DNA of 63,985 nucleotides, taken from positions 677,863 to 741,847 of the forward strand of contig MNCI01000472.1 in assembly GCA_015680685.1 (NCBI GenBank), in the 5' to 3' direction. The notes beneath the pieces are model-generated. The model was not told where the DNA came from. It saw only the letters and a list, made by a program, of their open reading frames with translations, and did no database searches. The stretch comes from Gnetum montanum. Taxonomy: Eukaryota > Plantae > Gnetophyta. The position numbers and the translations under genes are program-made. This document shows positions 15,701 through 63,985 of the stretch, in pieces; the first letter of the stretch is position 1, and each line of letters starts with the position of its first letter.

Positions 15701-18700
15701 TGAACAATAAACACAAGAGAAAGTTTGTGAAGCTATTTATTGGAGTTCACATATCCATGTGCCATCAAGTAGATAGCTAGCCATAGAAAATAATCATCAA
15801 ATCCTTTGCGTACTCTAATAGTCAGCCCATATAGATGGGATAAAGGCACCAAGATGATGACAATATATGTATGAGGCAAAACGTAATGTGCCTATTAATG
15901 CAAATTGTTGTTTGGCTTTAAAGAAAAGGTAAAATTTTAAATAATATTTCTAAGGTTCTCACAATGAAAATTGTAAAATCATTATACAAAGACTTCTAAT
16001 CAAAATAGCAGTTGTAATCCTACAAATGCCTAAACTCTTACAAAGATCTGTGCTAGGAGAGGGGTGTTGTGTAGTGGGGAGGCAAAGTGATTTGGGGTTA
16101 GATGGTGTGAGGCTTTGTGCTAACATTTGGACTATAATCTAAATGTAATAGATGAACAACATGTATTATCAGAATGTTGTGAAATAGATTTCTTTACAAG
16201 AAAATGGTATATCTCTAGTCAGCCTTTATATGAACTATTTAAGAGACCAATGTTGATTCTAAGGAATTATAAGAATAAGTGCTCACATTACATGAGTATT
16301 GTACATATCTGTAGTACTCAAAATTTGTTGATATTAATGTATTTTGTATAACCTAATTTGTTTGACATATCCTTTGTGTCCATATAGATGTAATAAAATT
16401 TTAGTTTTGGTTTCAATAAATGCTCATATTGGATTAAATTTCATTTTCTATTTCAAGTATTTTATTTTCAAAATTGTATTGAATTTTAAATGCTAGCTTG
16501 GTGGGAAAATATGCTTAATGTACATTGTACAATGACTAAGAAAAACATGTATATGTAAATATTTGCTATTTTATTTCAATTTTTAGGTCTTGAGAAAAGC
16601 CTTATAAAGGATCATCACCTGGAGCTATAGCACTCATTCTGCTAAACAGGGCCCCAAGAGTACTAGTAGATAAGCAAAAACCTAACCCTTTTGAGTGGTT
16701 GCACCCAAGCTGAAACCCAGGTCTTTGACTTAAGAAAAACTTTATGATAAGCCTAAATTGGCTAGAACAATTATGTTTTGCTAATAAATGAAATTACCAA
16801 GGGTCAAGGGTCATCATCTGTAGGCTCAATGCTCTTCCGACCAAGTAGGGCCTCAGGAGGATCAATGGAAGAGCAAAAGCCTAATCTCTTTTCAAGTGGG
16901 TGTGTCATTGAAACACAAGTCTTACTACCTAAGAAATGAGCACCTTACTATCATTCCAAATGATGGTCCTTTAATAAATGAAATTACCAAACATGATAAA
17001 AAATTAAGAAAAATATATCTAGTGTTCTAGGAATTGTGGTGAAAGAACCATACCCATGAATCAAGATTGTTATGTATATCATAGTCATGTTATTTTCAAT
17101 TATGAAGGTATAAAATTCTATATTTAATTTGTGGTATATTTTTTTAGTTTTATTAAATAATAAAATATAAGTATCTCCTCCAAAGCTAAAGAATGATTAC
17201 TAGATAACCTTTCTAGGCTATAACATAATGTATGCAATAAGACATTTAGCCTACTGTTTCATAAGAAATTTGACCCTTGGATTTGAATCATGATTAATTT
17301 GTGTATCTTCTTAAGCCTGACTCATTTCTCTTTTTTTTCTTTTTTTTTCTTTTTTGAGAAAGTAGTCGGGATTATATTAATGAAAAACTCAAAATATGTT
17401 ACAAGAGATTACAAGTGGTGGGCCATCAGGAATGGCCCCTCCGAGAGAGGGGATGATCCCCAAATTATGCAATACCGTGCCCAAGACAGCAAAAACAACA
17501 GGGGGAGCCCCCCCAGTAAGCGAGGGGGCACCCCCAGGGACAAGGGAGGGTGCACCCCCACCCGCAGGAAGAGCCAAAACCAGTGAAGAAGACCGGGGGG
17601 CACCAACCCGATAGAGGACCACCCACTAAGGGTTCGTCGGCAGTCGTTGGCAGGCGCAGTTGGGGTGCTCCAGCTCATGGAGGATATCCAGAGTGTTCCA
17701 ATGATCCTCTATGTCCATGAAACTGGCCACCTATTGGATGCCCTGCATGGCCGACTCCCGTCTACTCCTGTCCACCTGTGAAGCTCCTGCATCTGGGTGG
17801 TAGCGCGCCGAAGTTCGGCGGATATGTCGTCTAAGTTCCGCCCAGGAGCTCTCACAGCTGATGCCAAGAATGAGGTACGGGCATCGCCCCTCTCTTAGCC
17901 ATTGTCGGGCGTTATGCCCGTGGGCGCGGTCAAGTTGTCTCTATCGTTGGTCCTCCTCCTCCTGAAGCCGCTCCTGCTCCGCCCGCTCCGCCCACTCACA
18001 TCGTCTCTGGGCCTCCTCCTCTTGGGTTAATTCTTCCCACACTTGGGCCTTGATTTCGTCAATGAGGTGAGCCCTTGCAGCCTCAACCATGAGCTCCTGC
18101 TGCCTAACCCGTTCCTGCTCGTGCTCAGTGACCTGGGCTTCCAGGTCAGCCCGAGCCTGCGCGAGGGTTTCATTCCATTTGGCTTCCCATTCTTTCCTCT
18201 CTACCTCCCGGGCTTCGTCTACCGCCTTCTGCGTGGCCTACCGAAGCTCCTCATTCCAGTTCCTCTAGCCAGATGTCTCTGGTGGGGGGGAAGCCGATTT
18301 GGCAGGACGTTCAGGGGAGCGCTGCTCCCGCGGGGTCCTCTGACCCCGTGTAACGGAGAAACCCCAATGGGGCCAATCGCCCCCCCGCCCGGGCACCACC
18401 GTAGTGTCCTGTGGCCTAGCCGAGGGGGGGCATTCCAAAGAGACCCCCCACAGGGGGGCAGAGGACGAGGTGTGATGCCCCCCCTTTGCCCCCTGCCACA
18501 GTGCCAAAATTAAACCAAAGTGGCGGCCGCGGCGCTTGAGCTTAAGGGCCTCCTTAAAAAAGTGGGGGAGGTTGACCTAGCTACCCAACTTGAGGCAGCA
18601 TAGGAAAGCGAAGTGTAGGCCCTGCAATTTGGAGCCGTTGCTAGACTAGACGAAGAATCGGTCCACCAGATCTGCACCCCGGGCCCATAGGTGTGGCAGG

Positions 18701-21700
18701 GAAGATTTGGGTACTTGTCTGCTCTTGGTTCAAGGAACAGGCCCATCAAAGAACATTTCAACATCCTGGAGGCCACAGGTGGAGGGCAAAATGATCTATC
18801 CAGCAATCGAGGCCCCCAAACAGCTGGCAATCGAAGATTCTGTAATCCAGATTTCACGCCCACGAAAGAAGGTACAATCGTTGACCCAATTAGAGAAAAA
18901 CGCGGCGTCTGCCAAATTTGGATCCCCGACCAGCCGTTGCAGAGGGTCAGACCAACCGCACTGGGCCACCATCTGCCAGAGCGCCTCGTCCTCCTGGAAC
19001 ACGGCGCAGTCCAACTCGAAAGTGGGCGTGATTCCCATCGTCGTCTCGATTTCCTTCCACGCGGTGAGAGCCTGGGAGACCAGCCGCTGCAGAGGGGGGC
19101 GCTGTTGCTGCCGGAAAACAGTGTTATTCCATGCCTTCCACGCTACTCATAAAAGTAGTGTGGCCCAAGAGTCACCCGTGAGGCGCCTCAAGGGGGGCAT
19201 CGCCGCCACACGCCACATGGCGCGCATGCAAGGGCAATCAACCGCGAAGTGCTGCACCGTTTCAACAGCAGCATCACATGTAGGACACGTGTTGCTGTTT
19301 AGTATTCCGCGCCGCTGCAGCAAGGCCCGTACGGGCAATGCATCGCGCTTAAACAGCCACAGGAAGATTTTGATTTTTTCAGGCAACCGCCCCTGCCAGA
19401 TCCGCAGCCAACCATCAAGTTGGGGGTATTTGGCCATCAGAAGGGCTCGTGGCTCGAGGCCCCCCATCCCAAGGCCTGCATCACACGTGTGTGCCGGCAC
19501 AATGCCTGCCAGGGCCTAGAGTCCCGCGCCCCCGTTTCCTAGCGTAGATATTTGGCATTCATGATGCGGATCCATGGGATCGGTTCTCTATGTGGGCACG
19601 AAAACCGAAGCACTAACCGTTGTTATCCCATCATCAGCTCGTCCTCGAATGACGTGATGCCCAACCCACCCGTGCTTCGGGGGCGCACCACCCGTTCCCA
19701 ACGGACCAAATGGAATTTGTGCCCCCCCTTGCCCCCCTCCCAGACGAAGCTACGGATCAGCGTGTTAACCGCATTCATGACCACGTTTGGGGGGGTGGCA
19801 ACGGCAACCACGAAACGAGCAATTGGAAAAATCTAAGGTGTTAATCCATTGTTGTATAAAAAGGTAATCACCTGAAGACTCAATGCAATCCATTGCTATA
19901 TAACTATAGGATTAATGTTAGTTCTATGTCTAATATGTTTGGCATTTTATTAATTGCTAGTGTTGTACTTCATCTCATTTTTCTTTTTTCTTTTTTTTTT
20001 GTAAGAAAAGGTCAAGAATATATTACAAGCAAAAAATAATTCTAAGCATTGAAGGAAAAGGATCCCCAAACATTAGGGGGTGGGGCTGGGGCTGGGGGAC
20101 AAAAGACACCCTCTTGAACAAAGGGGAAGATTCCCAAAGACAAAAAAGTGGAGAAGGACCCTTATCCATTCACAAATACAATAGAGGAAACAAAAATTGG
20201 CCCGTCCCAAGGCCCCATGCATACAAAGCTCAATTTCAAAACCAAAACATAAAAACCCAAAACAACAAACAAGGCATACATGCTTGAACCAAAGGTAGAT
20301 AGTCATTATCCTCCCTTTGGATGACCCGCTAGATGGGGATAGTGATAGGGGAGGAGACCCTGCACTACCCATCCCCACGCCCCCCTCCCCCACCCCCCAA
20401 CCCCTGAAAAGATTTCCAACTAGAACCACTATAGGACCTCCACAATCGCCTATGGTTCATGGACCACAATCCCCCCATCAGAGATACAGGGGATCATTTT
20501 GACATCTTTTGCAACATTTCCCATAGCAAAAAAGAATTTTGTATTCTTATCCCCATCCTTCAACAATTTGGCCCATGACCTTTCCTTCCAATATGACTCT
20601 TCTTCCCTTGAAAGCTCCTAGAGCTAGACCAACAATTCATGTTCCTCCTCCTCCAAAGGTTCCCCTTGTTCCTACCTTCTCTGTATGTGCAACAATGTTT
20701 ATTGCAAAATTGAGCAGCTCACTTTGAAAGAGTACTTGTCCTCTTTACGAATCTTTCAAATCCCATGTTTAAGCAAGGACAAGCCACACTTAAGAAAGTC
20801 ATGTGGGTCTTCCTATGTTGGGTAGTAGCCCCAAATATCCCTCACAAGTTTATGCAGCCAACCTTTTGTTAGCCATGTGCACTCAAATCTAAACTAGGAC
20901 GAGGCAATTTCAAATGTGTGTTGGAAAGAACAAAGTAGGGCTCTATGATCAAATGCTCTAGCTGAAACAAACTTGTCAATAAGACTTACCTACATTGTTT
21001 GTATCCCCTCCGACAAGGCCCTATCCATCTAAAGATAGAGCTTCCCTGAAACATGAGAAACTGCCTCAATGCCTACCATCTGAACAAGCCAACTGGTCGA
21101 ACCAGCTAAGAGTTGCCCACCCAACAAGACCCCACGCCACCTATGGTCATGCCCTCTTTATGCACATGGCCAACAACCTTCTTCTAGTCCTCTACTCCTC
21201 CCACTTCCTCCACATTATCCCTCATCTTTGCTGCCCTAGTGGGCTTTGCATCGCTACCACCCTTCCCACTAGTGCCGCCTCCCTTACCATTGTTGACACT
21301 AGTCAAACCAAACCCATCACACCCACAACTCATCTTTTTGAATGGGTTTAGGCTAATGTTCATATTATCACCTTGGCTAATGCATTTTTCATTACAGTAG
21401 ATATGTTTAGATGATTTGTATTGGTAATGTTGCTAGGAAATATAGAATCTTAATTCACTATTGAATAAATATACAATCAATGTTTGAAATGTTTCATATC
21501 TCATCCAACAAGCTCTTCATTTGAACAAGTCTGTTCATAAACATTATGTAATTTTTTATTCAATAACTGAACCATGATCATTGTATCATTAATAATGTTA
21601 TTGTGAATAGAGGTGTAGACGACACCACAATTATTATATTTTCTTTGTATTCCAATTTGCAATTATCTAGCTTATGAAGAATGTGCTTTTCTACATTTTG

Positions 21701-24700
21701 ATCTTCTAAATGGTTGTTTATGTATTGCTCTACATGCCTCAAAAATTGGCCCGAGTTTATTTCATTTTACATTTATTGTGCACCTTGGATGCATAGTGAA
21801 TTTTGTTACATTTATTGTGCACCTTGGATGCATAGTGAATTCTATGATGTGTCGATTGTCATATTGGAAAACTTTCCAAGCAAAATCCTTAGACACCTGT
21901 TTGAATGTTGTACCATTTTATGCTTATAATTACTTAGGCCAAAATTAATTGTTGCTAATGTTAGTTTGATTGCATTATCACTATGACATTATTAAACATT
22001 TGCATAAGTGCATTTGAACTTATAAAAAGAAAATGTTGTTTCTTTCTAGAAGGATTTTAAATATGCAAAACAACAAAATGCTCTCAGCATCTTAACCAAG
22101 CTAATCCTCACTAGTAGTCAGCAACCATGCATTCACTACACAGCTCATTATAGTTCCCCTATGAAAAAACATGAGTATGGAGGTCTTCCCATGACTCCTA
22201 AGAACTTCGTATCTGTCAAGCATGCATTCTTGGAAAATTAAGAAAACAAATCCTTTCAACAAGCACATGACTTTGAATCACAAATAAAATTTCCTACATG
22301 TAAAGTCATGATACAATCTTCCATTTAATAGGTTGAAAAAATAAATTTTATTTTTTACGTAGAAGATCTGTCCCTATGAACAATCATTTTTTTGAGAGAA
22401 TATTCGGGAGTATATTATTGAGAAAGAAAAAATATAGTACAGGAGATTACAAATCATGGGTCATCAGCAATGGCCCTCAATAGATGGGGGAAAAAGCCCC
22501 TAAGTCACAAAATTTTAGCACCCCAACAACCATGCTAACCTCAAGAAACAGAACCAAAAAACAAACCAAAAACGAGGGGGGGCCAACCCCCCCCCCCCCC
22601 GGGGGGGCCCCCCCCCCCCCAGCCCAAGGGGAGGGGGCACCAGAAACAAGGGAAAATAACAGGGCGGGGGGCGGGGGGCAAAAGGACGAGGAAAGCGGTG
22701 ACGTCCAGGGGAAGCAAGCGTCGTCCACCCTCCAAGACACCCCCTCCTAGGGGTTCATCGACAGCCGACGGTAGGCATAGTGTGGGTGCTCCAGCTCATG
22801 GAGAAGGTCCAACGTGTTACGGTGGTCTTCCGTGTCCATGAAACTAGCAACCTGCTGGATACCCTGCATTGCCGACTCCCGCCTATTCCGGTCCATCGGC
22901 GAAGCTCCCCCATCAAGGTGAAAATGCACCGAGGTTTGGCAAATATGGTGCCTGAGCTCCCCCCAGAAGCTTTCGCAACTGATTCCTAGGATGAGGTACG
23001 GGCAATGCCCCCCTCTAAGCCATTGTCGAGCACTGTGCTCGTGTGCCCTATCAAGCTACCATTACCGTTGCTCCTCCTCCTCCTGTAAGCGTTCATGCTC
23101 CGCTCGCTTCGCCTCTTTGCGTTCTCTTTGGGCCGCATCCTTCTGCAGCAGTTCTTCCCGTACTTGGGCCCGAATTTCATCCACTAACCGGGCCCGGGCA
23201 GCATCGGCCATGAGATCGTATTGCCTCACCCACTCATGCTCCCGCTCGTGAAACTGGGCCTCCAAATCAACCCGGGCCTATGCAAGGGCTTCATTCCATT
23301 TGGCCTCCCACTCCCGTCTTTTAGCTTCACATGCCTCGACAACGGCTCTCTGTGTGGCCTCCCGCAGCTCTTCGTGCCAGTTCATGCTGCGGTCGAAGGT
23401 TTCTGATGGGGATGAAACTGATTTGCCGAGGCCAGCGGGGGGGCACCGTTCCCATTGAGTCCGCTGCCCTGCGTGAAGGTTGTAGCCGATAGGGTCCAAC
23501 GGTTCCCCTGGCTAGACAAGACCGTAGGGCCTGGGGGGTTAGCAGGGGGGCAAGCAAGGGGGCCCCCGCGGGGGGCAAATGACAATGGGTGTTGCCCCCC
23601 CCCCCTCTACCCCCCACCACAATGCTAAAATTAACCCTGAATGGCAGCCTCGCCTTTTAAGCAGGAGGGCTTCCAAGAAAAAGAGAAGGAGGTTAACCTG
23701 GCAGCCCAATTTTAGGCAACGCAGAAACACAAAATGTAGGCCCTAGAGCTTGGATCCGTTGCCAGACTAGACAAAAAATCTGTCCACCAAATCTGCTGCC
23801 CGAGCCCAGAGACAAGGAAGAGAAGATCGGGGCACCTGTCGACTTCGTGTACGTGGCACAGGCCCTTCGGAAAATAGTTCTGCATCCTGCAGACCACAGG
23901 TAGACAACAGGATGACCTCACCGATGACCTGGACCCCCAGACAGCTGGCGATTGAGGATTCTATGATGAGAATCTCGCACCCTCGAAAAAAGGTCCGGTC
24001 GTTGCTCCATTTGGTAAAGAAAGCGTCGTTTGCCAAATCTGGGTCCCCGACCAACCGCTGTAGAGGGTCACACCAGCCGCACTATGTCACCATCTGCCAA
24101 AGCTCCTCGTCATCCTGAAACGCAATGCAATCCAGTTCAAATGTTGGCGTGATTCCCATTGCCGCCTCAATTTCTTTCCACACACAGAGAGCTTGGAAAA
24201 CTAGCCGAGGGTGGAGCCTTTCCTAATGAAACACAATGTGGTTTCTTGCTTTCCACACTACCCATAAAAGTAGCGTGGCCCAAGAATCGCCGATGAGGCG
24301 CATCGAGGGGGTTGCCACCACCACAAGCCACGTGGCACGCATGTATGTACATTCATGAGTGAAGTGTTGAACTGTCTCGGGCTCGACGCCACAACAGGGA
24401 TAGGTGTCGTTCTGCATGAGCCCGCGCCAACATAGGAACTTGCGCACAGGCAACACGTTCATCTGTATCAACCAGAGGAAGATCTTCATCTTCTTAGGGA
24501 GCCACCCCCTCCAAATCTGCTACCAACCAACCACCTAGGGATACTTGGCTATCAGTAGATTGCATGACTCGAGATTCAACCACCCCTGGGTCTACATCGC
24601 CCATGCGTGCCAGCAAAGCGCTTGCCAGGGTCTAGAATCCCGCACCTCCGCCTCCCAACGTTGATACTTTGCATTCATGATACGAATCCACTGGATCGGT

Positions 24701-27700
24701 TCCCCGTGCAGGCGCATAAACCGAAGTATCAACCGTTGTTGTCCCAGCATCAATTCGTCCTTGAAGGATGTGATGCCCAACCCCCCCCCCCCCCCCCCCC
24801 CCCCCCCCNNNNNNNNNNNNNNNNNNNNNNNNNNNNNNNNNNNNNNNNNNNNNNNNNNNNNNNNNNNNNNNNNNNNNNNNNNNNNNNNNNNNNNNNNNNN
24901 NNNNNNNNNNNNNNNNNNNNNNNNNNNNNNNNNNNNNNNNNNNNNNNNNNNNNNNNNNNNNNNNNNNTTTGCAACTCAAGAAACGATTTGCCCAATGGCC
25001 CATCCTTCTCTCAACTTTCTCCATCAGTGACCCCCACGAAATGTTCCACCCCCATTGGTAGAGTGGAATGCCCAGGTAAGTGTCTTTGCCTATCCCGAGC
25101 AAGATATTCAGGATTTGCACCACCCAGCCTTTAACCTGCTCATCAACATTAATGAAATGTGCTGAAGATTTAGTCTGATTAATCTCCAACCCCAACTCAG
25201 CTGCCAAACAGGACAGAGCGATGTTGATGCATCGTGCCTGTGGGACCGCTGCCCGACTAAGCAACATTGTGTCATCCGCATAGTGTTCAACCCAACATGC
25301 CACCCCCACAATGTCCAAGCCATCCACCCCGAATGTGCTGCAATAGTTTTGCATTAGGCCCATAGCAATGATAAAAAGTAGGGGCAAAAGCGGGTCCCCC
25401 TTTCGTAGCCCCCTTCCTGGGGAGGATAGACCCCACAGTCACCCCCCCCCCACGTCAAAAGAGAAACCGGCTAAAGACTGCATGTGAATGCAAAGCTGGA
25501 TGAACTGCTAGTCAAAGCCCTTCTGTTGCATGATGGACTTCAAGGCTTCCCAGCTACATGAGCTGAACCAGGTGGCAACCTTGGTGCCAAACCATCCATC
25601 ATGGATAGTTGTAGGAGACTTTAACCAACGCCTTCACACTTGGGAGAAGTCTGGGGGGCTACCCCCCCCCCCCTCCACCTGATACGCAAGAGTTCGAAAA
25701 CTTTCTGGCAACCTACTCCCTGGTGGACTTACCCATTGAGAACTGCCAATTCACATGGAGCAATCAAAGGAAAGGCTCGAACCATGTCCTTTCCCGAATT
25801 GATCGGGTCTGCATCAGCTCCGACCTCCTCCTCCATTCCATCGTCCATGTTTCGGGGCAGGAGAGAGTCACCTCGGACCACTGCTTGCTGGTCTGTTTGC
25901 TTGGGCCAGAAAAGCCCCAGGCCCCACGGTCTTTCCGCTTTGAGGCCACCTGGTTAGCCAAGCCATGGTTGAGGCCGTTGGTTGAGGATATTTGGGCAAA
26001 TTACCGGCCTGGCCAAGGTGATCCCCGAAACTTCCTTAAGGAAGCTTTGCTTCGACTAAAGTGGGCCATCCGGGCGCTCCCAGTGGAGGATAAATTTTCC
26101 TTTAGGACGGGTCAGAAGACACTCAGGGATCAGCTTGGTCGAATCCAGGCCCAATAGGAGGCTGGGGAAGACTTACACAAGGAGGAACAGCACATTTTAC
26201 GTCAACTTCAAAGCCTTGACTTAGAAGAAGAGACATATTGGCGGCAACGCTCCCAGGTCAGATGGCTCTAGGAAGTGGACACGCAAACAAGATTTTTCTT
26301 TGCCATGGCTAAGACACGTGGGGGGGGGGGGGCCAACCACGCTGTCTATGCAACCAGGAGGGAGAGATCATTGACGACCCGCAGAAAATCGCAAACAAGC
26401 TATCGCAGTACTGGGGGAGGATCTTGGCCAAATGATCCACCAGGCCCATCTCGATCCACGTGGCACAGGTGCTGAACAAGGGGGACAACATGCAGCTGCT
26501 GGCCCCCTTTTCGTGGCAGGAACTCACGACCACTATCAACAGCATGCTGGGAGGAAAGGTGCCTGGTCCTGACAGCTGGAGCCTTGAGTTCTTTAAGACA
26601 TTCATGGATATTGTGGAACCCAATATCCTAGATGCGTTCAATCTCATGTTGGCCAAGAGGCAGGTCCAGAGGGAGCTCAACTGCTCCTGCATTGTGTGCA
26701 TCCCAAAACAATCAGACGCACACTGCCCTGAACACTTCCACCCTATCGAAGTGTGCAACGTGCTTATTCGGCTCTTCTCCAAACTACTGGTGCATAGGCT
26801 AGTGCCACTCATGCCCAAACTTGTGGGAATAAACCAGGCTGGCTTTATGCAGGGCTGGACCCTTCAGGACCAACTTCTCCTCGTGCAAGAGGTCCTTCAT
26901 TCACTTCGAACTTCGGGTTTCCCTGGGCTTTGCCTCAAACTATGAACAATCATTAAGATCATTGAATATTTACAATAAGCAAGGACCCTATATATGTCAA
27001 AAAATAATAGATAGTGGAGGAGGGGGGAGGTAGCCATGCATCGGTGGGTGGGGGTGGGGCGTGGGGAGGTAAGGGATACGCAACGAGGGCTATTGGAGGG
27101 GGGTGCAAGGGGTGAGACGTCTCAACTCCATGAGCTGCAAGGGGTGAGACTCGACAGGATTTGGGGGGGTGGGTGCCATTGCTAGGCGGGCCACATAGCT
27201 AGAGCTTTGGGAGGAACAATGGCACCAATGGAAGGAAGAGTTCCACTAGGAGTAGGAGCTTTGGGAGGAAAGATGGCACCAATGGGAGGAAAAGTTCCAC
27301 TAGGAGCAGGAGCTTTGGGAGTAGCAACAAGCACACTCCGTCCGTGAGGTGATGAGGGAGGAGCAGATACGACAAGACCTTGAGAAGGCAATGGCATAGC
27401 AAGAGATTAAGGTGGAGCTCCGGAAGTAAGTCAAGGAGGAGTTGTAGGAAGAGGCCAAGCAACGGGAAGAGGAGGAGTGAGAGGCTGAGGTGTGCCGACT
27501 GCCTACACCTTAGGAAGAGGAGGAGGAGGCCTAGATCAAGCAACAATTGGATCAGGCACATGCTGATGGGGTGCGGGCCTAGTTGTGCCAAGGTCGTCAC
27601 CCCTACGTTATTCTAAATATCAACCGGAATGTGCCTTGGTTGATGCTGCGGCAACACATTCGCAAGGAGGGGAAGAAGTTGCACCCTATTGGGATGCCAC

Positions 27701-30700: not shown

Positions 30701-33700
30701 TAGCCCAACTGCTAAGGGGAATTATTATTGTTGTTATTAAAAATAATTTGTTGTTTACATTTCTTGATTTTCAATTCATTCATTTTGAATAAACCAATGG
30801 AGAATCCTCTTTAGCCTACAGGCTTTTTATCTTCCTAATGTTCCCAGTTCTAAAGTACACAAATACCTGCAGGGAACTACAAATTCCAAAAGCAGCAACT
30901 AATGGCACCCTATGCTTTTACCAAAAGCTGAGAATAATCCAATAAAACACTAATTCACAATCAGGGCAGAGGAGTGTGGCAGAAGGGAACACGAGGACAA
31001 CCTACACCAGCAAGTGGAGGAGCTTTGCCACCAGGCAAAGGCCGTTAGGATGAACACCAAAGAAAAATCCGGGAGGCTACACTTCACAACTCCCTGGAAC
31101 TCCCTGGAGGAACAACTTTTAATGCAAATTAGAGAAGAGCTTCACAGAGAGGAGCAGCAGCAGCAGCTCAGGGAGGAGCACCTTCAAGAGGAGGAGCAGC
31201 TGTGTGAACGCCAACAGTCCATGCATGAATTTAATGCTTGGCACTAGTTTATGGCTGGCAAGTGCCCCTCCGTTGTGATGGGGATCAATAGAAACACCTC
31301 CTGGTCTGGGCTGCATAAGCATATCAAGATCCAATCAAGTGGCCTCCACCCTAATAAAGCCAAACACCTGGGTACAGAGGCCCTGGCCCAACAAGAGGAT
31401 AAGTATAAAGAAATTTAGGAGGATGCAGCTTTTGTCTAATCTAAGGCTTACCCGAACATTTTGGATTCCAACCACATATGGGAAAAGCCTGTTTGTACCT
31501 ACACTAAATCACTAATGAATTGCCTCTGTACCTAGTATAAACCTGCCATCTACCCTGAAAAAAGTCTATGTGAACAGAAGGTTGCACTCTTATTGTAATG
31601 AACCACTCCTTGAATTTTAATATTGATGATTACAAGTGTTTGTGTGTCTGTTTGGTAGATGTGCTTTGCTATTGACATTGGATTGCAGTATAAGTGATTA
31701 ATTAGAACATTATTAAATTTTGAATGTTGGCTTGTTTTTCATATATTTTATCTCTATATCATGTTTAAAAGTTTAAATGCTTGTTGTATGAGAAATATGC
31801 TAAAAAATGCATGCTGCAAATGCTTAATAAAATATATACATGGAAAAGAAAATATTTTCTAATCTACTTCAGCAAGAAGGACCGGAAAATAAAAGAGATA
31901 AACAAAGATACTCTATGGTAGGCTGCAATATAAATGATTTAAAAAGAAAATGAAAAATACTCATTATTGAGGAACTTGACCTATGAATAAATGTAGTGCC
32001 CCACATTTGTACATGTAACCCTAGTACCCTATTAAACACTTAAGACTTTTAATTCTTTTAAAGCTTATATATATTTGTAGATGTGCCTAATACTTCTTAG
32101 TAATATGAAGACTTCTGTTTCAGTGACGTGACATAAGCAAGATTACTATTTATTTCTCATTTATGTCTAATTTTTTATTATTTATATATATAGACAAATG
32201 AGCATAGCAAAGTCTAACATTATTTTAGAATAATATTAGGAAATTAATGTGATGTGGATCTATGGTTTATTTTAATCTTTAGTTAGAATTTTTAAATTAT
32301 TGAATATTTAATTAATTAAAACACCTAGAGTATAGATCTACAATTAGTCTTTCAATTGGAAATTGAATGCTAGATTTTGAGATTTTAATGTTAAAGGATT
32401 AAAATAGCACCCAAGAGGTTTACAAAAGCGGTCTTTAAGTAGACCATGAAGATTTTGTCATGGAATTGCAAAGGACAAGGTACCCCATACAAACAAAGTA
32501 TCCTTAAAGAATTAGTGCAAAGTAAAGATTGCACAATAGTTTGTCTACAAGAAACTAAGCTTCATTTGGGGAATTGTTCGACACTACACTAGGCAAAATG
32601 GTTCTCGCAGTTTATGGATTGTTGTGGGCAGGCTGGAGGCTTGGCTACCAATTCTCGCCTTCCCCATGAGCTAGTGCACTCCTCCGCTTGGAGTATCACA
32701 GTGTTTTTTCCTTCACACAACCTATGGCTTACAAATTTTATGGTTCGCAATGCTAGGATGAACACATACAAGAGTTGCAAAGGATTGCTAGCTGCATTCC
32801 TAATGAGCGTGCTTGGGTTTTAATCAAGGACTTTAATACGCAAGTATATGCTTTGGATAAGACTAGGCAGGCCATGCAAAGGGCTGCAGACGAGGCATGG
32901 GAGGCTAAGCAGCGGGAGTGGGAGGCCAAGTGGCATGAAGCCCTTGCGCAGGCCCGGGCCGACTTGGAGGCCCAATTTTCTGAGCAGGAACAAGAGCGGG
33001 TGAGGCAGCAAGACCTCATGGCCGAAGCTGCCAGGGCCTGTTTAATTGACAAAATTTGGGCCCAAGTGAGGGATGAGTTGGCTCAGGAGGAAGCGGCCCA
33101 GAGAAAGCAGGAGCAAGTAGAGTAGGAGCGGCTTCAAGAGGAGGAAGAGCAGCGACAACGGCAACTCAATCGGGCTCACGAGCACAACGCCTGCCAGTGG
33201 CTCAGAGGGGGGCGGTGCCCGTACCTCATCCTGGGCATCAGCTCTGAGTGCTCCTGGGGTGAGCTCAAGCACCATATCCGCCGAACTTCAACGCGTTTCC
33301 ATCTTGATGCAGGCGCCTCGCAGGCAAGAGTCAACCATGCAGGGTATCCAGCAAGCAGCCAGTTTCATGGACACAAAAGACCACCGAAACACTCTGGACT
33401 TTCTCCATGAGCTGGAGCACCCTCACTGTGCCTGCCGACGAACCCCTGGGGGGGTTGGCTCCAAGTCATGAGCGACATTTGCCCCCCCTTGGGCCAAGGT
33501 CATTTCCGCGTCCCTCCCCCCCCCCCAGTGCTGTCGTTCAATGCTTTCCCTCGATTTCTTGGGGCTGATCTTTTGTCTTTGCACGGCTTTTTGGGTGCTG
33601 ATCTTTTTGGCCTTGGGGATCTTTCCCCTCCTTGGCAAGCCATTGCTGATGGCCCACCTTTTGTAATCTCTTGTACTATAATCCGTCTTCATAGTAATAT

Positions 33701-36700
33701 ATTCCCGACTACTTTCTCAAAAAAAAAAAACTAGGCAAGAAACTAATCCACCACCAAGGCACTTGCACTTCCATCAATTTCTGGATACACCCGATCTAGT
33801 AGACATCAGGCTTACAAGTTGCCTCTACACTTGGAGCAACAGAAGGAGGGGGGCTAATCGGGTTACGTCCAAAATCGACAAGGTGTGGGTAAGTGCCGAG
33901 ATCCTTATTTCACATGAAATATTCTCCAGGGGCAAGAAAGGACAGCATTAGATCATCAGGTTCTCATATGTACAATCCAAAAACCATACAGACGTAGAAT
34001 TCTCCCCTTTCGTTTCAAAAAATCCTGGATCTCAAAGTCATGGCTACAAAGTTTGCTTACAGAGATCTGAGCTAAGTACCCTAACACCGTTGACCTTCAA
34101 GATTTTTTGAAATATGGGATGTCTATGCTCAAGTGCAAGATTTGGAACATTCAAACCTTTGAAAAGTATTCTTTCGAGGCCTCTCAAGCTGCCAAGCAAC
34201 AAGCTCTAATGGACGTCTAGGCCAAACAGAAAGCTAGAGAATAGCTAGTTGAGGAAGAGCATAGACTATTGGTGGAGCTTCAACAATTGGCAGAAGAGGA
34301 AAAACCGTACTGGAAACAAAGATCCAAGGTCAAATGGCTTTGAGAGGGGGGGCATAATATGCACTTCTTCTTTGCTACTGCAAAAGCACACAATGACTCC
34401 AAGAAAATTCACCGATTGATCCATAGGGAATGTACCTTACACCATCTGTATGAGATTGCTTAGGCCATGCAATAGTACTAGTTGGACATATGGAAAAGAG
34501 GAGATTCTGCACCTATGTCAGCTACGATCCAAAGGGTGGTTGGCACAAATGAAAACCAAAGGTTCATTGCAACCATTACAAAGCAAGAGCTGTCAGAGGT
34601 CATGACAACCCTAAAAAGTGATAACACTTTAAGGCCTAACAGGTGGCCCATCGAATTATTTCGAGAGTTCACTGATATTCTAGGGGACAACATCCTTGAT
34701 GCCTTCAACCTCATGTTGCAAAGGCAGCAAGTGAGACACGAGATTAGTTGTTCAAGAATTGCCCTTATCCCAATAACGGAGAATCCCACAAAGCTATCTC
34801 ACTTTAGGCCTATTGAAGTGTGTAACACACTCCTCTGACTTTTTACAAAAATTCTAGTTAAGCACTTACAATCTTTGATGCCAACCTTGGTTGGGCCACA
34901 ACAGGTGGGGTTCATCAAAGAAAGATATATTCGAAATCAGATCCTTCTCTTGCAAGAACTCATGCATTTTGTGCACAGAGCCAAATTCTTGGGAATGTGT
35001 GTCAAGCTTGACATCACAAAAGCATACAATATCGTACACTGGACTACTCTCCATAATATAATGCTCAAAAAGGGAATTCACCCACAATTTGTCAACCTTT
35101 GCATCAACATCCAAGCAATGGGAGCATACTCTTTTAACATTAACAGGCATCTTTGGGGCTTTTCCTCCCTCAGTAGAAGGCTGCAAAAAAGAGATCCTTT
35201 ATCACCATACATGCTTATTATTGCAATGGACACCATGAAGTTGTATTGTAGGATGGAAGGGGTCAAAGGCCTAAACATCGAAGATGTTACATGCAACATT
35301 GAACATTATGTTGATGACACAATTTTAAGAACTCGGGCTGCAGTTCAACAAGCACAAGCTATCAATGAGACTTTTGAAAAAATGGCCAAAGAGATTGGCT
35401 TGGAGCTCAACAAGGGAAAATCCTCTATCTACTTCTTCCACATTGAGAATGTGGTGAAAAGGCAAGTCTACCAAGAGCTCAAGATTCTGTAGGGTAAGGT
35501 AGGGGACTCCTATCTTGGAATTCCAATGTTTGCATGGAATAGAAAGACATCATGGTCCTAGATTATTCAAAGACTCTAATCGTATGTTGGCCATTGGACT
35601 ACACATTTCCTCACAAGGAAAGGCACAATCATTTTGGCCACTTGTGTTCTTTCCGCCATGGCTCGCTACATTGCTTTTGTCGCCAGTCACCCAAGAGGGG
35701 TTATTGAGAAGATATATCAAATTATTAGGAAATTCATGTGATCAGGGAAAAAGCAGGAGAACCTCGTTAGCTAGGAAAAGGTGGCAAAACCAAAGCTTGT
35801 CAGAGGGTTGGAGTGCTAAAGTTTGAGGATGCCATATTAATGGGGCACCAAAACATTTTGAATCTATTTATGCAATAAGATGGCTACCATGTGCAATAGG
35901 TAAACATCCTTTAGAATAAATATCAACCTTGGTTTGCAAACGCTCAAGACTCTCATATATGACGTAACCTCTGCTCCCATGCTAGTAAGGTAAGCCAATG
36001 GGGGTTGATGGGTGCACGACCTAGGGACATCATCAAATTTAAATATCTTGTCACACGTGGGTGGTTGGCCACCTGGAAGGGGCATCTACCCAAAAAAATT
36101 AAATGCTCTTTGTGGCTTTTGAATCGAGGATCCTCCCAATAAGGGCGGTGCTAAGAATGTGAGGGCGACAAATTGAAGACACCCATCCACTTTGTGGCAC
36201 CGCTATAGAAACAATTTACCACTTTGTGATTTTCTACCCCTTCACTGTCAAAGTGTGGAAGGAGCCAAAGCTTTAGCAACCTCTACATCTACACAATGAC
36301 GCACCTACAACTGTTGTACTATAGTGTGTCTGACGCCATCGAAATGAGCAGGTTTTTTGGTCTACTCGGCCACTACCGCTTGCATAGGTTGCAAGTCTCA
36401 ATGCCCTACTCTAGCATGAGGTGACCGCAACCATGGAAGTCATGCCTACCTTTAAACTAGAGTGTAGGACTTTTCACTCCAACATGCAACTTTGGGGCTT
36501 GGTGGTTTATGTTGGCTGGGAAGACCTCCTCCCCCAGCTTGTGGGTGATCCAAACCTGCCAAATGAGGCCTTCTTTAGGCATTATAGGGGGAGGCAATGA
36601 TATTCCGAGGTGGAAGAACATGCCACAAGGGAAGAGTTGCAACAAAAGATGGAGCAGGAGTGCAAGGAGTGGGTTGAGCAAGAGGAGCAACATAGATAGG

Positions 36701-39700
36701 AAGCAAACAAGGAGGTCATGTGCTAGTGGAAGCTAAGAGAAGCTACCCTCAGAAGTGAGCTCAAGGACATCTTGTGCCTTCAAAGTCTCAAAGACTTGCT
36801 CAAGGAGCAAGAATGGAAAAGAAGAGCCACTAAAGAGGCAAAGCAGCAGGCTAGGGAGCTCGAAGAAGAGCTATAGATGTAGCGCAAGCAAAACAAAGCG
36901 CATGAAACAAACGCTCATCGCTGATTGCAATAGGGTCATTGCCCATACATTATCATGAAGGCAAACCACATTGTAGCTTGGCACACCTCGTGCAAATTTA
37001 TCAATGTTACCTCCAGTAGGTTGCACCCAGATAGTGCCAAATCACAGGTCACATGCCACCAATGTGAGGAAGAGTACAAGAAATTTCAAGAGGCAATGGC
37101 TTTTATCTCCTCAAAACAACAATAGGCCATCCTAGATGCAATTCATGTGCAGGAAAGACCCCGTTGCCATTGTAATCAACTTCCTAATCCTACTTCGGGT
37201 GGGCCTCAAGGTTCTTAGGTTGCCCCAATGGAAAATTTTGCTTGCACTTACTAGGGGATTCTTCACCCATTGATGTTTCCAAATGGTGATGTTTCCTAGG
37301 GAAGAGCAACCTTCCTATTTTGGGGGGTTTCCTCTCCTCCTTTCTTCTAGCTTGTACATATATGTTTTATTCTCGCTTAATATTAACCTAACCTTTTCTC
37401 ACAAAAAAACACATCCAAACAAATCCCCATTAACCTTGGAACCCCCTAAACTCATCAAAATAAGCTCCAAACATACCAAAACACCTCGGAATCATCACCA
37501 ACAAGGCCAACATAAGAAGACACACATACACATAAAAATACATGTGATGCCTTCTATCAATAGCCTATGGACTCCCTCAACTCTACAATAGTTGTTCATC
37601 AAGTCCATAGATATGATAAATAGATAGGGTGAGAAGGGATCCCCTTGTCAAAGCCCTCTCTATGGAGAAGAAAAGCCCATAAGCTAACCTTCAAAACTAA
37701 AGGAGAAAGCTCCTACCCATTGAATGCATATGCATAACTAGACAAATCTCTAATTGAAGCCAGCATAATATGTTGTAGAGTTGACCATTCTAGAAACTCA
37801 TATGCCTTAGAAATGTCTAGTTTCATAAACATGCCTTAGAAAAAAAAAGGCTTCTTTGACTTAAGGAAAAGCTATCTTTTTCCCTGCATGCCTCTATAAT
37901 CCTTCCCTCTTCAACGACTTTGGACACCAGCTTCTACCATCCAGGTCCTCCTTCTGAGCCACCAAGGTTGCCCTCTAGACTACCACTATCACAATCACAT
38001 CCACTACAACCACCATCTTAAGCCTTGTCTTTGCCACCCCCATAGTCTTCAACTCTATTGTGTCCACTATTAATGCCCACTACCACCCTCTCTCATTCCA
38101 TTGCTCCCACTATTGCATCCATCGGTACCCCCTCTAGAAAACCCATCATCTCTCCTATTGTTACACCCACCTTTGCATCCACCATCACCATTGCGCTTCT
38201 CATAGTTTTCTTGTATTGCAAATCACTTATTTTATGAATACTATGATTTATAGTTGTACTCTTTGTGTTACTACTTATATTTGGTTACGCATAATTTAAA
38301 ACTGCTAAGGTGAATTGGTTGAGTTAATTTGCTTATAGTTGAACAAGAAGGCTATAGATATGATTTCAAGTTTAATTGTCTAGACATTTGTATTATACTT
38401 GGAAGCATATTGTATAATGAGAGATGTCAATTGTCACCTTGGCATTCTCTTCCTAATAGATCCTTGGATTATTGTTTGCATTATATAATTTTCTGTGTTT
38501 ATAATTTACCTTTTTTATGCTAAAATGATTGTTGTAAATGCTAGTCTAATTTCTATTTAAAAAAATTCATCCTTGCATTTTTCAACTAGCATTTTGGGAA
38601 GTTTGGGTTTTAACTCTTGCTCCCTACCAATGAGTGTTACACTTTTAACCATTAACAATAATAACTCTAGTTTGTCACTCCTAAGTTGCATCTCAAGCGT
38701 TACTATCCTATAACTAGTCATTGATCCATCTCATAACAAGTAAATCCATGCAATGTGAAAAAGTAATTGATACTTACCAAAAACATCATCCACTAGTTAC
38801 TAAAAAATAATTAAGAATTCATGCTCAAAATCCATGTCCATGCTAGAGGTAAACACCAATTGAATTAGTACAAACGGCTCCAAAAATGAGCTTGAGCAAA
38901 AATTCAAAGCTTTGGTCACTTTCAAGGATACACTATGAACTTGGTGCCTCTCTTCCTCAGGTTCGCCAATCATCTGGCATCAAGCAGCCTTGTGTTGACT
39001 TAAAAATCATGAAATTTTGAAATTTTTGAAGAATTTCAGACATCATGTCTTTGCCTAATGTGTAAAGTTCAGTGCAAAAACCATTTACTCAAGTCAAAAA
39101 TGAACTATGATTTTGGACAAGACTATGCTCTATGATAGTAAGCATGAGCTGATAGGCCAGTGGTAATGCCCACAGGCCTTGCAACCAAGGCTGCCAGGCA
39201 CAAATCCCTCCAGCCATGTTAGAGCCCACCAACATTAGAACCCATATTCTCATATCCAAGGCAGAAAATGCAGTTAAGCAATCACTATAGTTTGTCCAGT
39301 TCTGACTAGAAATTAGATATTCTCTTCACAAAAAATAAAAATTAAAAAAATTTGTGTCGGTATAATGTAAGAACAATTTAGAGACTATTTCCAAATAAAA
39401 GCCGTGTGGTATATACTTCGAGTAGCATACAATAATGTAGAGCTCCAAACACATAACATTATGAACTCATAACAATCAATTGTCCACAGATTTTGCAGCT
39501 ATGTAATCAACAAAAAGAAAAAGGTTTGATTGCAAAAAAATGAACACACCATCTCGATGAATTTTAGTAGGAACATTTGAAGAGTCTTCCATCCCATTGG
39601 AGTTTTCTGCATCCTGTTTTTCAATATCTTTATGGCCTGAACCATAAAGTTCACTATCGGACCTTTTATTTAAGGAAACGTTGAGTGCTGGAATCCTAGG

Positions 39701-48599: not shown

Positions 48600-51500
48600 A
48601 TTAAAATTTTGCATTAACAAATTTAATGACTACAATACACAAAAGAGAGTCCCACAAGGGAAATTATGGCTAGTTTTTTAGCTCTTAGAGGATTCAAATA
48701 TAAATGGATATTCAAAGCTTAGAGATGTAATTTGTAGAAGAACTAAATTACTAAATTTGTATGAAAAAGTTATATTCAAGCTCCAAAATAGTAAATCAAA
48801 GAATAATTTTAAATTTTGGAGCAAAAATTAAAGTGAAACAAGGGTGTCCTTGATCTCCAACTCTCTTTGGTCTCTTCATTGACAAGTTGCAGGATTAGTT
48901 ATGCAATAGAACATAGACATGCTGTAAAAAGAGGTTCTCAAGAAGTGAACCTACTTCTTTATGCAGATGATGCTACTTTGATATCTGCATCTAAAAAAGG
49001 TATGTCTACTATGTTGCAAATTTTAGAAAAATTTTGCATTTCTTATGGATTGCACATCAATATAGATAAAACTATAAAAATGGTATAAAGCATGAGAAAC
49101 ACATGGTATAACTTTAAATTTGGTGATCAGAGTGTACAAATCATGGACTCTTTAAAATCCTTGGATCTTCAACATGTGAATAAGTATATATGGGATAAAT
49201 CCATTAAGAACAAAATAGCTAGAGGAAAAAAAGTTCTCTATGCAATTAAAAACAAATGTAAGGCTCTAAGAATTTGGGCTTAGAAGGTCAGAAAATAAAT
49301 TTTTAAAACAATCAGTTATCCTATTGTATTATAAAGATACAAAGTTTGGGGACCATATCTTACTGCCAAAAATTGGAAGGCTATTTAAAGAATACAAAAA
49401 ATATTGTTACTTGATGAATTAAAGATAAAGGTACAAAAACCTTGTTCCCTACTCCTATTAGGATATAATCTACTTCATCTACAAGCAAAAGCTATTTGTC
49501 AATTTATTGCATATACTAAAAAAATTGGCAAAAATAGAACAGATCAAATTTTCTAAAGTTATTCTTGAAGACACAAAGGAGAAAGGATGGTATTTCCAAG
49601 CACTACAATGGTTAAACACTTAAGATATCATACTGTAGGAGATACAAAGTAATTTAAAGGACATTTTTAAGTTAGTTATGCAATGGATGCTAACAAAGTT
49701 ATGGTCAAATATAGAAGACAAGAATAAGTTTCATTTGGAATGCATAAGTGATAACCAATTAAATTCAAAAGTTTGCTATCTATTAGTTGTACTCTCAATC
49801 AGATGTCACATATTTTTTTTTTTTGAGAAAGTATTCGGGATTCTATTACGGAAAGATCAAAAATATGTTACAGGAGATTACAACAGGGGGGTCACCAACG
49901 GTGGCCACACCGAGGGGGAAGGATCCCCCAAACGATCACGGCATCTCACCCAGGCTGGCCGGCTGGGGGGCAAGATCCACGAAAAGACATCAAAAAACAT
50001 CAATCCCAAAGGGAGATAGTGGGGGGGCGCCCCCGCAGCCGAAGGACAAAAACTCCTCACCCCCTTAGGGGTTCGTAGGAAGCTGCCTGCAAGCACAATC
50101 AAGGCGAATCAGCTCATGCAGAAGATTTAGAGTATTTTGGTGCTCCTCCGTGTCCATGAAACTGGCCGCCTGCTAGATACCTTGCATGGCCGCCTGCCTG
50201 TTATTTCTGTCTTCCTGGGAGGTGCCTGCGTCGGGGTGGCAGTGCGCCGAGGTTCGGCGGATGTATCTACGAAGTTCGCCCCATGAACTCTCGCAGTTGA
50301 TACCTAACGTGAGGTTTGGGCACCGACCCCCACGCAGCCATTGTCTAGCGTCATGCTCGTGGGCACGATCCAGCTACCGCTATCTTTGCTCTTCCTCCTC
50401 CATAAGTCGGGCCCACTCCTCCTGTTCCGCCTACTGTCTCTGTCTCCGGGACTCATCCTCCTGCACGAGCTCCTCCCGCACTTGGGCTCTGATTTCATCG
50501 ATGAGCCGAGCCCTGGCGGCGTCTGCCATGATGTCCTGCTATCTAGCCCGCTCCTGCTCCCTCGCCCGGAACTAGGCCTCTAACTCGTTGCGGGCCTGGG
50601 CGAGGGCCTCCGTCCACTTCGCCTCCCACTCCTTTCTTTCTGCCTCTCTGGCTTCATCCACCACCCGCCTTCGTTGCTCCTCACTCCAGGCTGAGGTTGT
50701 AGGGGGGCTGGAGGTTTTTGGGGGGGCGAGGGTCAACCTGTCTTGCCGAGCGGGGGGGCGCTGCTCCCTCGGGGTCCTGCGGCCCCGCGTGACGCCAACG
50801 TCCCAAGGGCTCGAGCTCTCCGCCCCCCCTGGGGGCCTGGGGGCGCCGCTCCCCCGAGGTCTTGGGGGGGCATCTCGACGAGACCCCCCGGGGGGGCAGA
50901 GGAGGAGGGTTGCTACCCCCCCTCCGCCCCCGACCACAGAGCCAGAATTACGCTCAAATGCCGACCCCGGTGCTTGAGGCGGAGGGCCTCCTTAAAATAG
51001 AGGGGGAGGTTGACCTGGCAGCCCGTCTTGAGGCAGCGCAGAAAGGTGAAGTGCAGGCCCTGCAGCTTGGACCCGTTGCCAGACTGGACAAAGTACCTGT
51101 CGACCAGGTCCACACCACGCGCCCAGAGGCAGGGGAGGGCAAATCTAGGCACCTGCTTGCTCTTTGTCCTGGGGATAGGTCCGTTAAAGAACAGCTCTGC
51201 GTCCTGGAGGCCGTGGGTTGAGGGTAAGATGGTCTCCCCAGCGATGGGGGCCCCCAGACAGTTGGCAATTGCTGCCTCCGTGACCCAAATCTCCCACCCT
51301 CTGAAGAAGGTACAGTCGTTGACCCAATTTGAGAAGAAAGCATCATCTGCCAACTCTGGGTCCCCCACCAGTCGCTGCAAAGGAACAGCCCATCCACATT
51401 GGACCACCAACCACCAAAGCTCCTCGAATTCCTGAAAGGCGATGCAATCTAGCTCGAATGTGGGCATGGTTCCCATGGTGCTTTCAATTTCTTTCCACGC

Positions 51501-53430
51501 GAGAGATGCCTGCCAAACCAGCTGCTGTGGAGGGGGGTGCCGCTGCTGCCGAAAAATGAAATTATTTCTAACTTTCCACGCGATCCAAAGAAGTAGGGAA
51601 GCCCATGAATCGCTGGTCAAACGCCTCGGGGGGGCACTGCCGCCACGCGTCGCGCATGCGCGGGCAATCACGGGCGAAATGGATGGTAGTTTCTACCGCA
51701 CCCCCGCATGTCAAACACGTGTCCGCATCGAGCATCCCACGCCGCCTCAACAAAGTTCTGACAAGCAGCGCGTCATGCTGCAACAACCAAATGAAGAATT
51801 TAATTTTTTCCAGCAACCTTCCTCTCCAAATCTGCCGCCAAGTGTTGCAGCGCGGGTACTTTTCCACCATGATGGCTCTGGGCTCGAGGTTTGCCCAACC
51901 CGAGGCCTGCATGTCGCACGCGTGTCTGGCCATGGTCTGCCAAGACTTGGAGTCTCGTGCCGTCGCCTCCCAGCGGACATATTTATTGCGAATAATATTA
52001 ATCCATGGGACCGGGTCCCAATGCAGCCGCCAGAGCCGGAGAGCGAGCCGTTGCCGCCCAAGCATCAACTCATCCTTGAACGTCATGATGCCCAGGCCGC
52101 CCACGCCACGTGGGCGCGCCACTTGCTCCCAATGGACCAAGTGCAGCTTGCTCCCCCCTCTNNNNNNNNNNNNNNNNNNNNNNNNNNNNNNNNNNNNNNN
52201 NNNNNNNNNNNNNNNNNNNNNNNNNNNNNNNNNNNNNNNNNNNNNNNNNNNNNNNNNNNNNNNNNNNNNNNNCGCCCCTTGTGGCTCAGGAATCTGTTAG
52301 CCCAATGGCTCGCCCTTCACTCCATCTTTTCCAGTAGATGGCCCCATGCCGTAGTCCTTCCCCACCGGAAAAGGGGGATGCCCAGGTACATGTCGTTGGG
52401 GGTCCCTGGTTGAATGGCGAGGGTTTGCGTCACCCTTGCTTTGATCTACTCATCTACATTAACGAAGTAGGCCGCGGACTTGGCTCTGTTGACTTCCAAC
52501 CCCAGTTCGGCGGCCAACCGAGATAACGCCAAATTTATGCATCGGGCCTGTGGGACCGCCGCCCTGCTAAGCAACATCGTGTCATTCGCATAATGTTCCG
52601 CCCGGCACATCACCCCTGCGATGCTAAGCCCGTCCACCCCGGAGGTACTGCAGTAATGTTGCATTAGATCCATGGCAATAATGAAGAGGAGGGGGGAGAG
52701 TGGGTCCCCTTGCCTCAACCCCCTCCCGGGGGATGCGAGGCCCCACAACCACCCCCCCACATCAAAGGAGAACCCCGCCAAGGATTGTAGGTGAATGCAC
52801 AATCGGGTGAACTGCGGGTCGAAGCCTTTCTGCTGCATGATGGTCTGCAAAGCCTCCCAACTTAGGGTGTCGTACGCTTTCGTGATGTCCAGCTTGAGGC
52901 AGAGGCCAAGGAAGCCCGAGGTCCCAAGCAAGTGGATCACCTCCTGCATGAGGAGGATCTGGTCCTGGATGACCCATCCCTGCACAAAGCCTGCCTGGTT
53001 CTTTCCCACTAGCTTGGGCATGAGCGGCGAAAGCCTATGCACCAACAATTTGGAGAAGATTCGGAGTATCACGTTGCACACTCCGATAGGGCGAAACTGC
53101 TCAAGGAGATGTCACATATTCATTAACAAGCTTCATTTGAGTTCGCATCATTTTAGGATAGAAAGCAGAAGATGGATGCAACTTTTTAGAGAAGAACGCA
53201 CACATAGACTATGTGGGTCAAGAGATCTTGAGAACGAGCCTCACATTTTTTTTAGTTTCCCTCAGACTAAACATTTGAGACAAAAATATAATATTGCAAC
53301 AAAAGGTTTATATGATCTTTTCTTGTTGCATCTAACATTAGTCAATCACTTTGATGACTCAATATTTAACTTTCATGAATTAAATGTAATGCATGTCTAA
53401 TAGATCATTTCGGTCTTTAGATGTAATAAA
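48600..53430 (+). mobile_element. Degraded non-L1 LINE (RTEX/L2-like), split by a J-domain LINE
   Basis: QGCP*SPTLFGLFID, LLLYADD at 48840-48970. After the insertion: LSSHHFRIESRRW..REER..RLCG..ENEPH (53130-53290). Confidence 0.75.
49815..53106 (-). mobile_element. 5'-truncated young J-domain LINE with 14-bp TSD
   Basis: RT 52446-53081, zf-RVT, ORF 50913-51671 (WIAWKVRN continuing into the accessory domain), coiled coil, J-domain CHPD at 50230-50238. agatgtcacatatt at 49801-49814 and 53107-53120. Confidence 0.93.
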
Positions 53431-63666: not shown

Positions 63667-63985
63667 ATATAGGGGCTCTTATTTAAATCTTTCAGGAATT
63701 TCCAACTTTCCCCAGTTGATGTTTTTAAGGTTAAGGCTTGGAATTTGGCAACAAACTTGCTCTAGTATATCTATGCTTTCAATGTAAGCACTAGTTATTC
63801 CCTCAGTTAGTTCCATGCACATTAGTGAGTTGCTCTCTTGATCAGCCATTAGCCACTGGGTGTCTTCTTGTCATGTGGCTGCTGCATACAGGCACTTTTG
63901 TATATTAATGTCTTGTGCACATCGATTACATGTAGGCAATGCTAAACTTTGCATAACCCATGATCTCTGCACGCAATTACACCCT

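Follow-up and report, generated by a model that had tools for sequence, protein, structure and literature searches.

What stands after the zinc finger in the second open reading frame (ORF2) of a plant long interspersed nuclear element (LINE) in which RNase H is not recognized? This question is raised by a 63,985-nt stretch of the Gnetum montanum genome (assembly GCA_015680685.1, contig MNCI01000472.1, positions 677,863-741,847 of the forward strand), hereafter called the window, within which all coordinates below are counted. Near 50 kb the window carries an L1-type LINE whose ORF2 continues beyond the zinc finger (zf-RVT) into a domain that we call domain X. A first-pass annotation, made from the sequence alone, had described this part as an accessory domain of transposable elements (TEs) that replaces RNase H. 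In this study, we found that X is indeed a TE accessory domain and not an RNase H, that it stands at the position held by RNase H in many related elements, and that it is followed in ORF2 by a linker, a coiled-coil-like region and a J-like domain. The X-J architecture is a real feature of a plant L1 family.

The ORF2 tail and the element that carries it

The window contains six copies of X, within the domain order zf-RVT, X, linker, coiled coil and J, and the same order was observed in a distant L1 (locus L001, described below). In L001, and in each of the five window copies whose junction survives, X continues the ORF2 frame. Its distance from the WxxWKxRN motif is fixed (38-40 residues from KxRN to PTF in 5/5 junction-keeping copies), also in L001, and its start Met is kept in 6/6 window copies. 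The five segments previously suggested as homologous to the 50-kb X were recovered at the proposed places, one of them partial (Table 1), with tblastn identities of 36-71% (E 2e-14 to 4e-112), and a profile search of the window returned those sites alone below E 0.5.

The frame quoted in the first-pass annotation exists as a stop-to-stop frame on the minus strand (50913-51692), reading from LLWIAWKVRNNFIF (51593-51552) through LWWLVVQCGW and GDPELADDAFF to LSVILALW. ORF2 does not end with the domain: the linker, coiled coil and J-like domain lie downstream. The first ~25 codons of frame 50913-51692 represent out-of-frame zf-RVT (frame change near 51640), and where the frame closes with TAG (50915-50913), the sister copies at 18 kb and 23 kb read CAT and CAA. 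Thus, this frame is a remnant limited to the 50-kb copy. Across the linker, the flanking Trp codons are separated by 240 nt, in frame, in two of the three comparable copies (those at 18 and 23 kb) and by 248 nt in the 50-kb copy. In four regions, 28 of the 31 stops were TAG, mostly opposite CAG, CAA or TGG, and C-to-T change affected 51/207 CHG, 40/201 CG and 108/1,161 CHH sites. Such TAG-rich stops and CHG/CG-biased changes point to post-insertion decay under methylation.

The coiled coil and J module, which had also been proposed, proved to be real: J-like domains occur at eight places in the window, and the module lies downstream of X. When a profile of the window J copies was compared with the PDB, 21 of the 22 matches were DnaJ/Hsp40 chains, all weak (best E 0.016). 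Four of the eight copies matched PF00226, below its cut-off of 27.8 (best E 8.4e-5; 21.7 bits). The loop motif reads HPD in three copies, HPN in two, HLD in two and HPI in one.

The X-bearing family is an L1-clade LINE of plants, as shown by its target-site duplications (TSDs), A-tails, reverse transcriptase (RT) with zf-RVT, 5' inversion and DUF4283 ORF1. DUF4283, the homologues in Ginkgo and the CHG decay point to a plant element. Exact TSDs (14 bp and 15 bp) were present in two of the seven copies tested, with one further short imperfect duplication. 5' truncation, a 5' inversion (25600-26942) and A-tails were observed among the copies, and Pfam recognized DUF4283 ORF1 at 2970-3935 and in L001. 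By its motifs GDFN, SRIDR and SDH, we take the piece at 25600-25900 to be endonuclease; it matches L001 (tblastn E 5e-22), and the partial, broken endonuclease pieces of the window gave no Pfam match. Around the 50-kb insertion (49775-53125), the segment ~49800-53110 is missing from joints seen in DNA contigs and in four RNA reads, so that the site must also exist either without the insertion or as a paralogous flank. Summed DNA-contig depth, which is not a copy number, was thousands-fold over the element versus ~7-20 in the quietest inter-copy stretches. Poly(A) RNA reads from related copies, mostly <95% alike, span RT to J (2,011 and 1,093 reads); they come from runs without known strand, and intron read-through could account for them.

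Domain X and its relatives

Among the three closest copies, the ratio of nonsynonymous to synonymous differences (pN/pS) of X was 0.21, 0.26 and 0.20 (bootstrap upper bounds 0.27-0.34), and across all 10 X pairs it was 0.20-0.56. Values elsewhere were similar, at 0.17 for RT, 0.21-0.31 for the coiled coil and 0.21-0.26 for J. Purifying selection at this level indicates that X is a formerly working protein domain. Its invariant residues are E8, G38, L114, W118, K137, L138, L146 and N156.

With regard to RNase H, neither the window ORF nor seven aligned members nor L001 matched RVT_3 or RNase H in Pfam (PF13456, PF00075). The D-E-D-D set is not conserved across copies, in agreement with the first-pass annotation: eight columns are acidic in at least 80% of six LINE rows, and just E8 and E81 are also mostly acidic in five Ginkgo-type rows. 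Both predicted models of the X family are helical with a single two-stranded hairpin, whereas the RNase H fold is a mixed five-stranded sheet. By position, X occupies the slot of aRNH in Ta11-type L1, which according to the accessible part of PMC5348765 lies after the CCHC motif.

A phmmer search with X gave three matches, namely a repeat artefact, the Ginkgo protein Gb_11572 (E 2e-6) and the protein P0003 (E 2e-5). The locus of P0003, L001, holds a full-length but decayed L1 comprising DUF4283, endonuclease, RT, zf-RVT, X, a spacer and DnaJ. Its RT is 37-45% identical to the window RTs, its X was found with the window-only profile at E 7e-26, and its 3' end is a TTTCTC-A tail as in the window family. 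At 5902-7794 of L001, a spacer of 545 codons precedes DnaJ; it is charged, of low complexity and in a different frame from X, in a copy with many breaks. The DnaJ domain looks canonical, scores 37.3 bits (E 3e-9; Pfam cut-off 27.8) and has a loop that reads YLD. Since it matches the window J poorly, it is possible, judging from sequence, that J was gained twice, separately in the L001 and window lineages.

Profile searches with X returned 16 and 57 proteins, nearly all of them Ginkgo gene models (53 of 57 rows). Profiles built from the window or from Ginkgo alone agreed with each other (hhalign 96.5%, E 7e-10), the Ginkgo-only profile matched the X copies alone within the window, and the LINE-only profile scored Ginkgo-type proteins at up to 55.9 bits, compared with 4.5 for 1,344 controls. 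The homology is therefore independent of the route by which the proteins were retrieved. Many Ginkgo ORFs start with MGGDPVTTEP, aligned with MGxxPTFE of X, and thus it seems that an entire ORF, start codon included, was captured by the LINE. Dozens of Ginkgo models (P0002, P0005-P0068) belong, in decayed form, to a single unannotated family that has the domain and, at its C terminus, a conserved helical hairpin; the many decayed paralogues suggest that this family is itself of TE origin. These models could seed a new Pfam-type family.

The first-pass annotation had related X to PF20167, ATHILA ORF1 and the plant mobile domain (PMD). Membership of these families was not borne out: no member scanned gave a Pfam match, even a weak one, to PF20167 or PF03078, none matched PF10536 or DUF1985, the Ginkgo family likewise had no Pfam match to these or to RNase H, and X matched neither DUF287 in Pfam nor VANC21 in sequence. 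On the other hand, a PMD-like fold was supported indirectly, through a chain of three links. X and the Ginkgo family are joined by profile. A Ginkgo homologue model superposes on residues ~300-542 of VANC21 over 193-198 residues (7-10% identity), and with two structure aligners VANC21 was the top-ranked of 350,542 and of 48,161 chains, matched along the entire domain, the top match being its double-stranded-DNA complex (PDB 9lnj, 9lnk); an RNA-binding fold was not retrieved in these searches. Finally, a published comparison of predicted structures found that DUF1985 of VANC resembles the PMD of MAIN/MAIL1. Thus, it is quite probable from the models that X has a VANC/DUF1985/PMD-type fold.

A proposed function and its rivals

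We propose that the X-linker-coil-J module is likely, with a probability of about 0.5, a self-encoded DNA-binding anti-silencing factor. In this proposal, X would bind a DNA motif present in copies of its own element, and the coiled coil would dimerise or space the module. J domains recruit Hsp70; the J domain here would recruit Hsp70 and chromatin complexes and thereby lower methylation or Polycomb silencing at cognate copies. Preprints of 2026 reportedly deal with J proteins in plant chromatin remodelling. Whether motif reading, spacing and recruitment of Hsp70-linked chromatin machinery would combine into a one-chain version of SUVH1/3-DNAJ1/2 is an evenly balanced call. The Met kept at the start of X may also permit X-coil-J to be made as a protein of its own, a form that would fit action in trans, and we hold this idea a little less firmly. 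More tentative still is the full picture of an old L1 lineage that encodes its own sequence-specific anti-silencing machine, with a VANC/PMD-fold DNA reader, coil and J acting both as the tail of the ORF2 protein (ORF2p) and as a free protein from an internal start. If true, the VANC/PMD fold would be a counter-defence common to Mutator, Gypsy and LINE elements, the three large TE classes of plants, and older than flowering plants.

Several observations weigh against an anti-silencing role. The copies themselves show methylation-type decay, and HPD is often lost among the window J copies. A short target-motif array was not found in the eight 3' untranslated regions (UTRs) covered. Moreover, J partners of plant chromatin readers also silence, as far as the accessible parts of the published accounts go.

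An unlikely alternative use of the same DNA- or chromatin-binding fold would be in cis on ORF2p, steering target-primed insertion towards particular sequences or chromatin, like the chromodomains of chromoviruses. Such targeting would fit the fact that ORF2p acts at the insertion site, the in-frame fusion of X in every junction-keeping copy and in L001, and the crowding of at least 10 family copies into 64 kb. However, the two clear TSDs share no obvious motif beyond AT-richness, the stand-alone Ginkgo homologues are not fused to RT, and the best structural relative is an anti-silencing protein. We consider it rather less probable that the module serves ribonucleoprotein assembly, X binding the element's own RNA or an RNA:DNA hybrid and J bringing Hsp70 to fold or activate a very long ORF2p, in analogy with the hepadnaviral polymerase, which Hsp40/Hsp70 activate. 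The Hsp70-recruiting capacity of J domains would serve this purpose, and the conserved basic residues of X suit RNA as well as DNA. The module also sits in the aRNH slot of Ta11-type L1, after the CCHC motif (PMC5348765, in the part accessible), but the structural searches led to a double-stranded-DNA complex and to no RNA-binding fold, and one old copy retains X without a detectable J.

The helical match to VANC21 could also be coincidental, X being a TE domain of other descent that might, for instance, interact with a restriction factor of the host and sequester it. This appears slightly more doubtful again, because both aligners gave the first rank to one and the same plant-transposon protein, matched along the entire domain, and because this protein belongs to a class predicted beforehand. 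Very improbable, and largely refuted, is the view of X as an RNase H that has degenerated or as a neutral passenger from 3' transduction. Its position after zf-RVT agrees with aRNH, but the lack of an RNase H Pfam match and of an acidic tetrad, the helical models, the strong purifying selection on X and its persistence in two lineages far apart argue against this view. The anti-silencing reading, if true, would extend this function to non-LTR (long terminal repeat) retrotransposons, with the fold joined to a J domain of the sort that serves plant chromatin readers as effector, and provide a testable model, in a single chain, of the way in which such factors act.

Further copies and comparison with known systems

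The window holds at least 10 copies of the family, of very different ages (Table 1). Their crowding may be due to targeting, or to a large intron or a repeat-rich region in which insertions are tolerated.

Table 1. Features of the 50-kb insertion and of other family copies in the window
Positions	Strand	Feature	Remarks
49801..53120	-	5'-truncated L1 insertion with both TSD copies	3.3-kb insert proper, 49815-53106
53107..53120	-	TSD, 5' copy, 14 bp	14/14 identical to 3' copy
52273..53106	-	RT and thumb, 5' end truncated	Pfam RVT_1, E 2e-22
52162..52272		Assembly gap	Downstream of RT
51643..51870	-	zf-RVT (CCHC)	Pfam PF13966, E 1e-13
51477..51593	-	End of ORF2 C-terminal domain (WxxWKxRN motif and subsequent helix)	In frame with X
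50925..51476	-	Accessory domain X, 184 codons, from Met of MGxxPTFE	Predicted VANC/DUF1985/PMD-like helical fold, one beta hairpin
50913..50915	-	TAG, private to 50-kb copy	CAT / CAA at aligned codon in two sister copies
50689..50912	-	Ser/Pro/Gly-rich linker	Small indels in G/C runs in 50-kb copy
50380..50688	-	Glu/Arg-rich coiled-coil-like region, ~100 codons	Presumed coiled coil, from composition
50065..50379	-	J-like domain with HPD, then short CxC tail and family stop codon	
49815..50064	-	3' UTR ending TTTCTC and A-tail	A-tail 49815-49824
49801..49814	-	TSD, 3' copy, 14 bp	
2970..4295	+	DUF4283 ORF1, assembly gap (3949-4142), X-family 3' UTR and A-tail	No duplication found
7250..10240	+	Older copy: ORF1 fragment, internal deletion joining ORF1 to post-RT region, zf-RVT, X (8459-9006), coiled coil, J	
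12860..14233	-	Oldest copy: X (13616-14167), coiled-coil-like region, A-tail	No J detected
17330..19825	-	Sister copy: zf-RVT, X (18487-19038), linker, coiled coil, J	One frame, point stops only
22374..26954	-	Sister copy with X (23608-24159)	Exact 15-bp TSD; endonuclease and RT start inverted on + (25600-26942)
32860..33740	+	Short 5'-truncated copy: coiled coil, J, 3' UTR only	Short imperfect duplication
33850..37410	+	Endonuclease end, RT, zf-RVT, first ~51 codons of X (36433-36591) joined by deletion to coiled coil, J	

In the inverted sister copy, the outer end of the inversion adjoins, in element sequence, the start of the sense part, an arrangement that we take to be the twin-priming pattern of L1. 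The copy at 2970-4295 is probably a full-length one collapsed in assembly. Directly upstream of its DUF4283 ORF1, 77-bp (3.2 copies) and 21-bp tandem repeats (2676-2987) contain several recurrences of a short word like GTTCTAC(A/C)A; they may represent monomers of a 5' UTR, an array of motifs in the style of VANC, or flanking DNA without any relation to the element. Two more remnants that carry J, preceded by diverged coiled coils but not by X, lie at 27100-28140, which holds a 54-bp tandem repeat (27202-27321), and at 30900-31520. Just 5' of the 7-kb copy, a 175-codon Lys/Glu-rich coiled-coil-like open frame (6534-7061, +) belongs to no clear family.

Other elements were also observed. A zf-RVT-like fragment of a different LINE runs off the window start (64-141, -). 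A broken LTR-retrotransposon pol remnant (60761-63787, -) has RT and RNase H Pfam matches and no adjacent X homologue; one of its ORFs presumably represents an integrase C-terminus. Tandem or dispersed repeats unrelated to the X family occur at 43233-44561, 31994-32324/40410-40738 and 15760-15860/46494-46595.

No LINE with a PMD/VANC-like or J domain was found described in the literature covered, which included the accessible parts of PMC11728184 and PMC5203782 and left subscription journals and Repbase outside its scope. Plant L1 elements, including the Ta11 type (aRNH, RVT_3 PF13456), share with the X family DUF4283 ORF1, endonuclease, RT, zf-RVT, A-tails, TSDs, 5' truncation or inversion and an extra domain after CCHC, but the X family has no RNase H and its ORF2 is longer by ~450 codons (X, linker, coiled coil and J), and by more in L001. 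The Ginkgo biloba ORFs (Gb_11572, Gb_15585, Gb_23349 and others) are homologous to X over the whole domain, with the same Met-Gly-x-x-Pro..Glu start; unlike X of the LINEs, they stand alone, with a disordered linker and C-terminal helical hairpin and with neither J nor RT. The existence of this unannotated family suggests that Pfam greatly understates the spread of the fold.

Among LTR retrotransposons, the extra ORFs of the Transposase_32 (PF20167) and ATHILA ORF1 (PF03078) types resemble X in size, the additional-ORF domain having ~180 residues in the part of PMC11728184 available, and in the sequence pattern pointed out in the first-pass annotation, whereas no X member matches their hidden Markov models. 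Like X, PMD (PF10536; MAIN/MAIL1/MAIL2, Gypsy PMD-A, MULE-fused PMD-C) occurs in TEs, where it spans several classes and is fused to transposase in some Mutator-like elements (MULEs). The sources, in their accessible parts, describe it from angiosperm genes, Gypsy and MULE elements and not from LINEs; X lacks a PF10536 match and is linked to PMD indirectly, through VANC21.

For the coupling of a DNA-binding module to a J domain, SUVH1/3-DNAJ1/2 and MBD5/6-SILENZIO-Hsp70 of Arabidopsis offer an analogy only, since these are separate host-encoded polypeptides whereas X-coil-J is one TE-encoded chain; the accessible part of PMC11694752 presents SUVH1/3-DNAJ1/2 as a chromatin module of reader and J domain. 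Anti-silencing encoded by transposons is established for VANDAL DNA transposons and, in the accessible parts of the sources, speculated for PMD-bearing Gypsy and MULE elements. The VANC proteins of VANDAL Mutator-like elements (VANC21; DUF1985, PF09331) resemble X in being TE-encoded accessory proteins and in the fold on which the predicted model of the X homologue superposes, and X differs from them in that its host is a LINE and that it is fused to ORF2 and a J domain.
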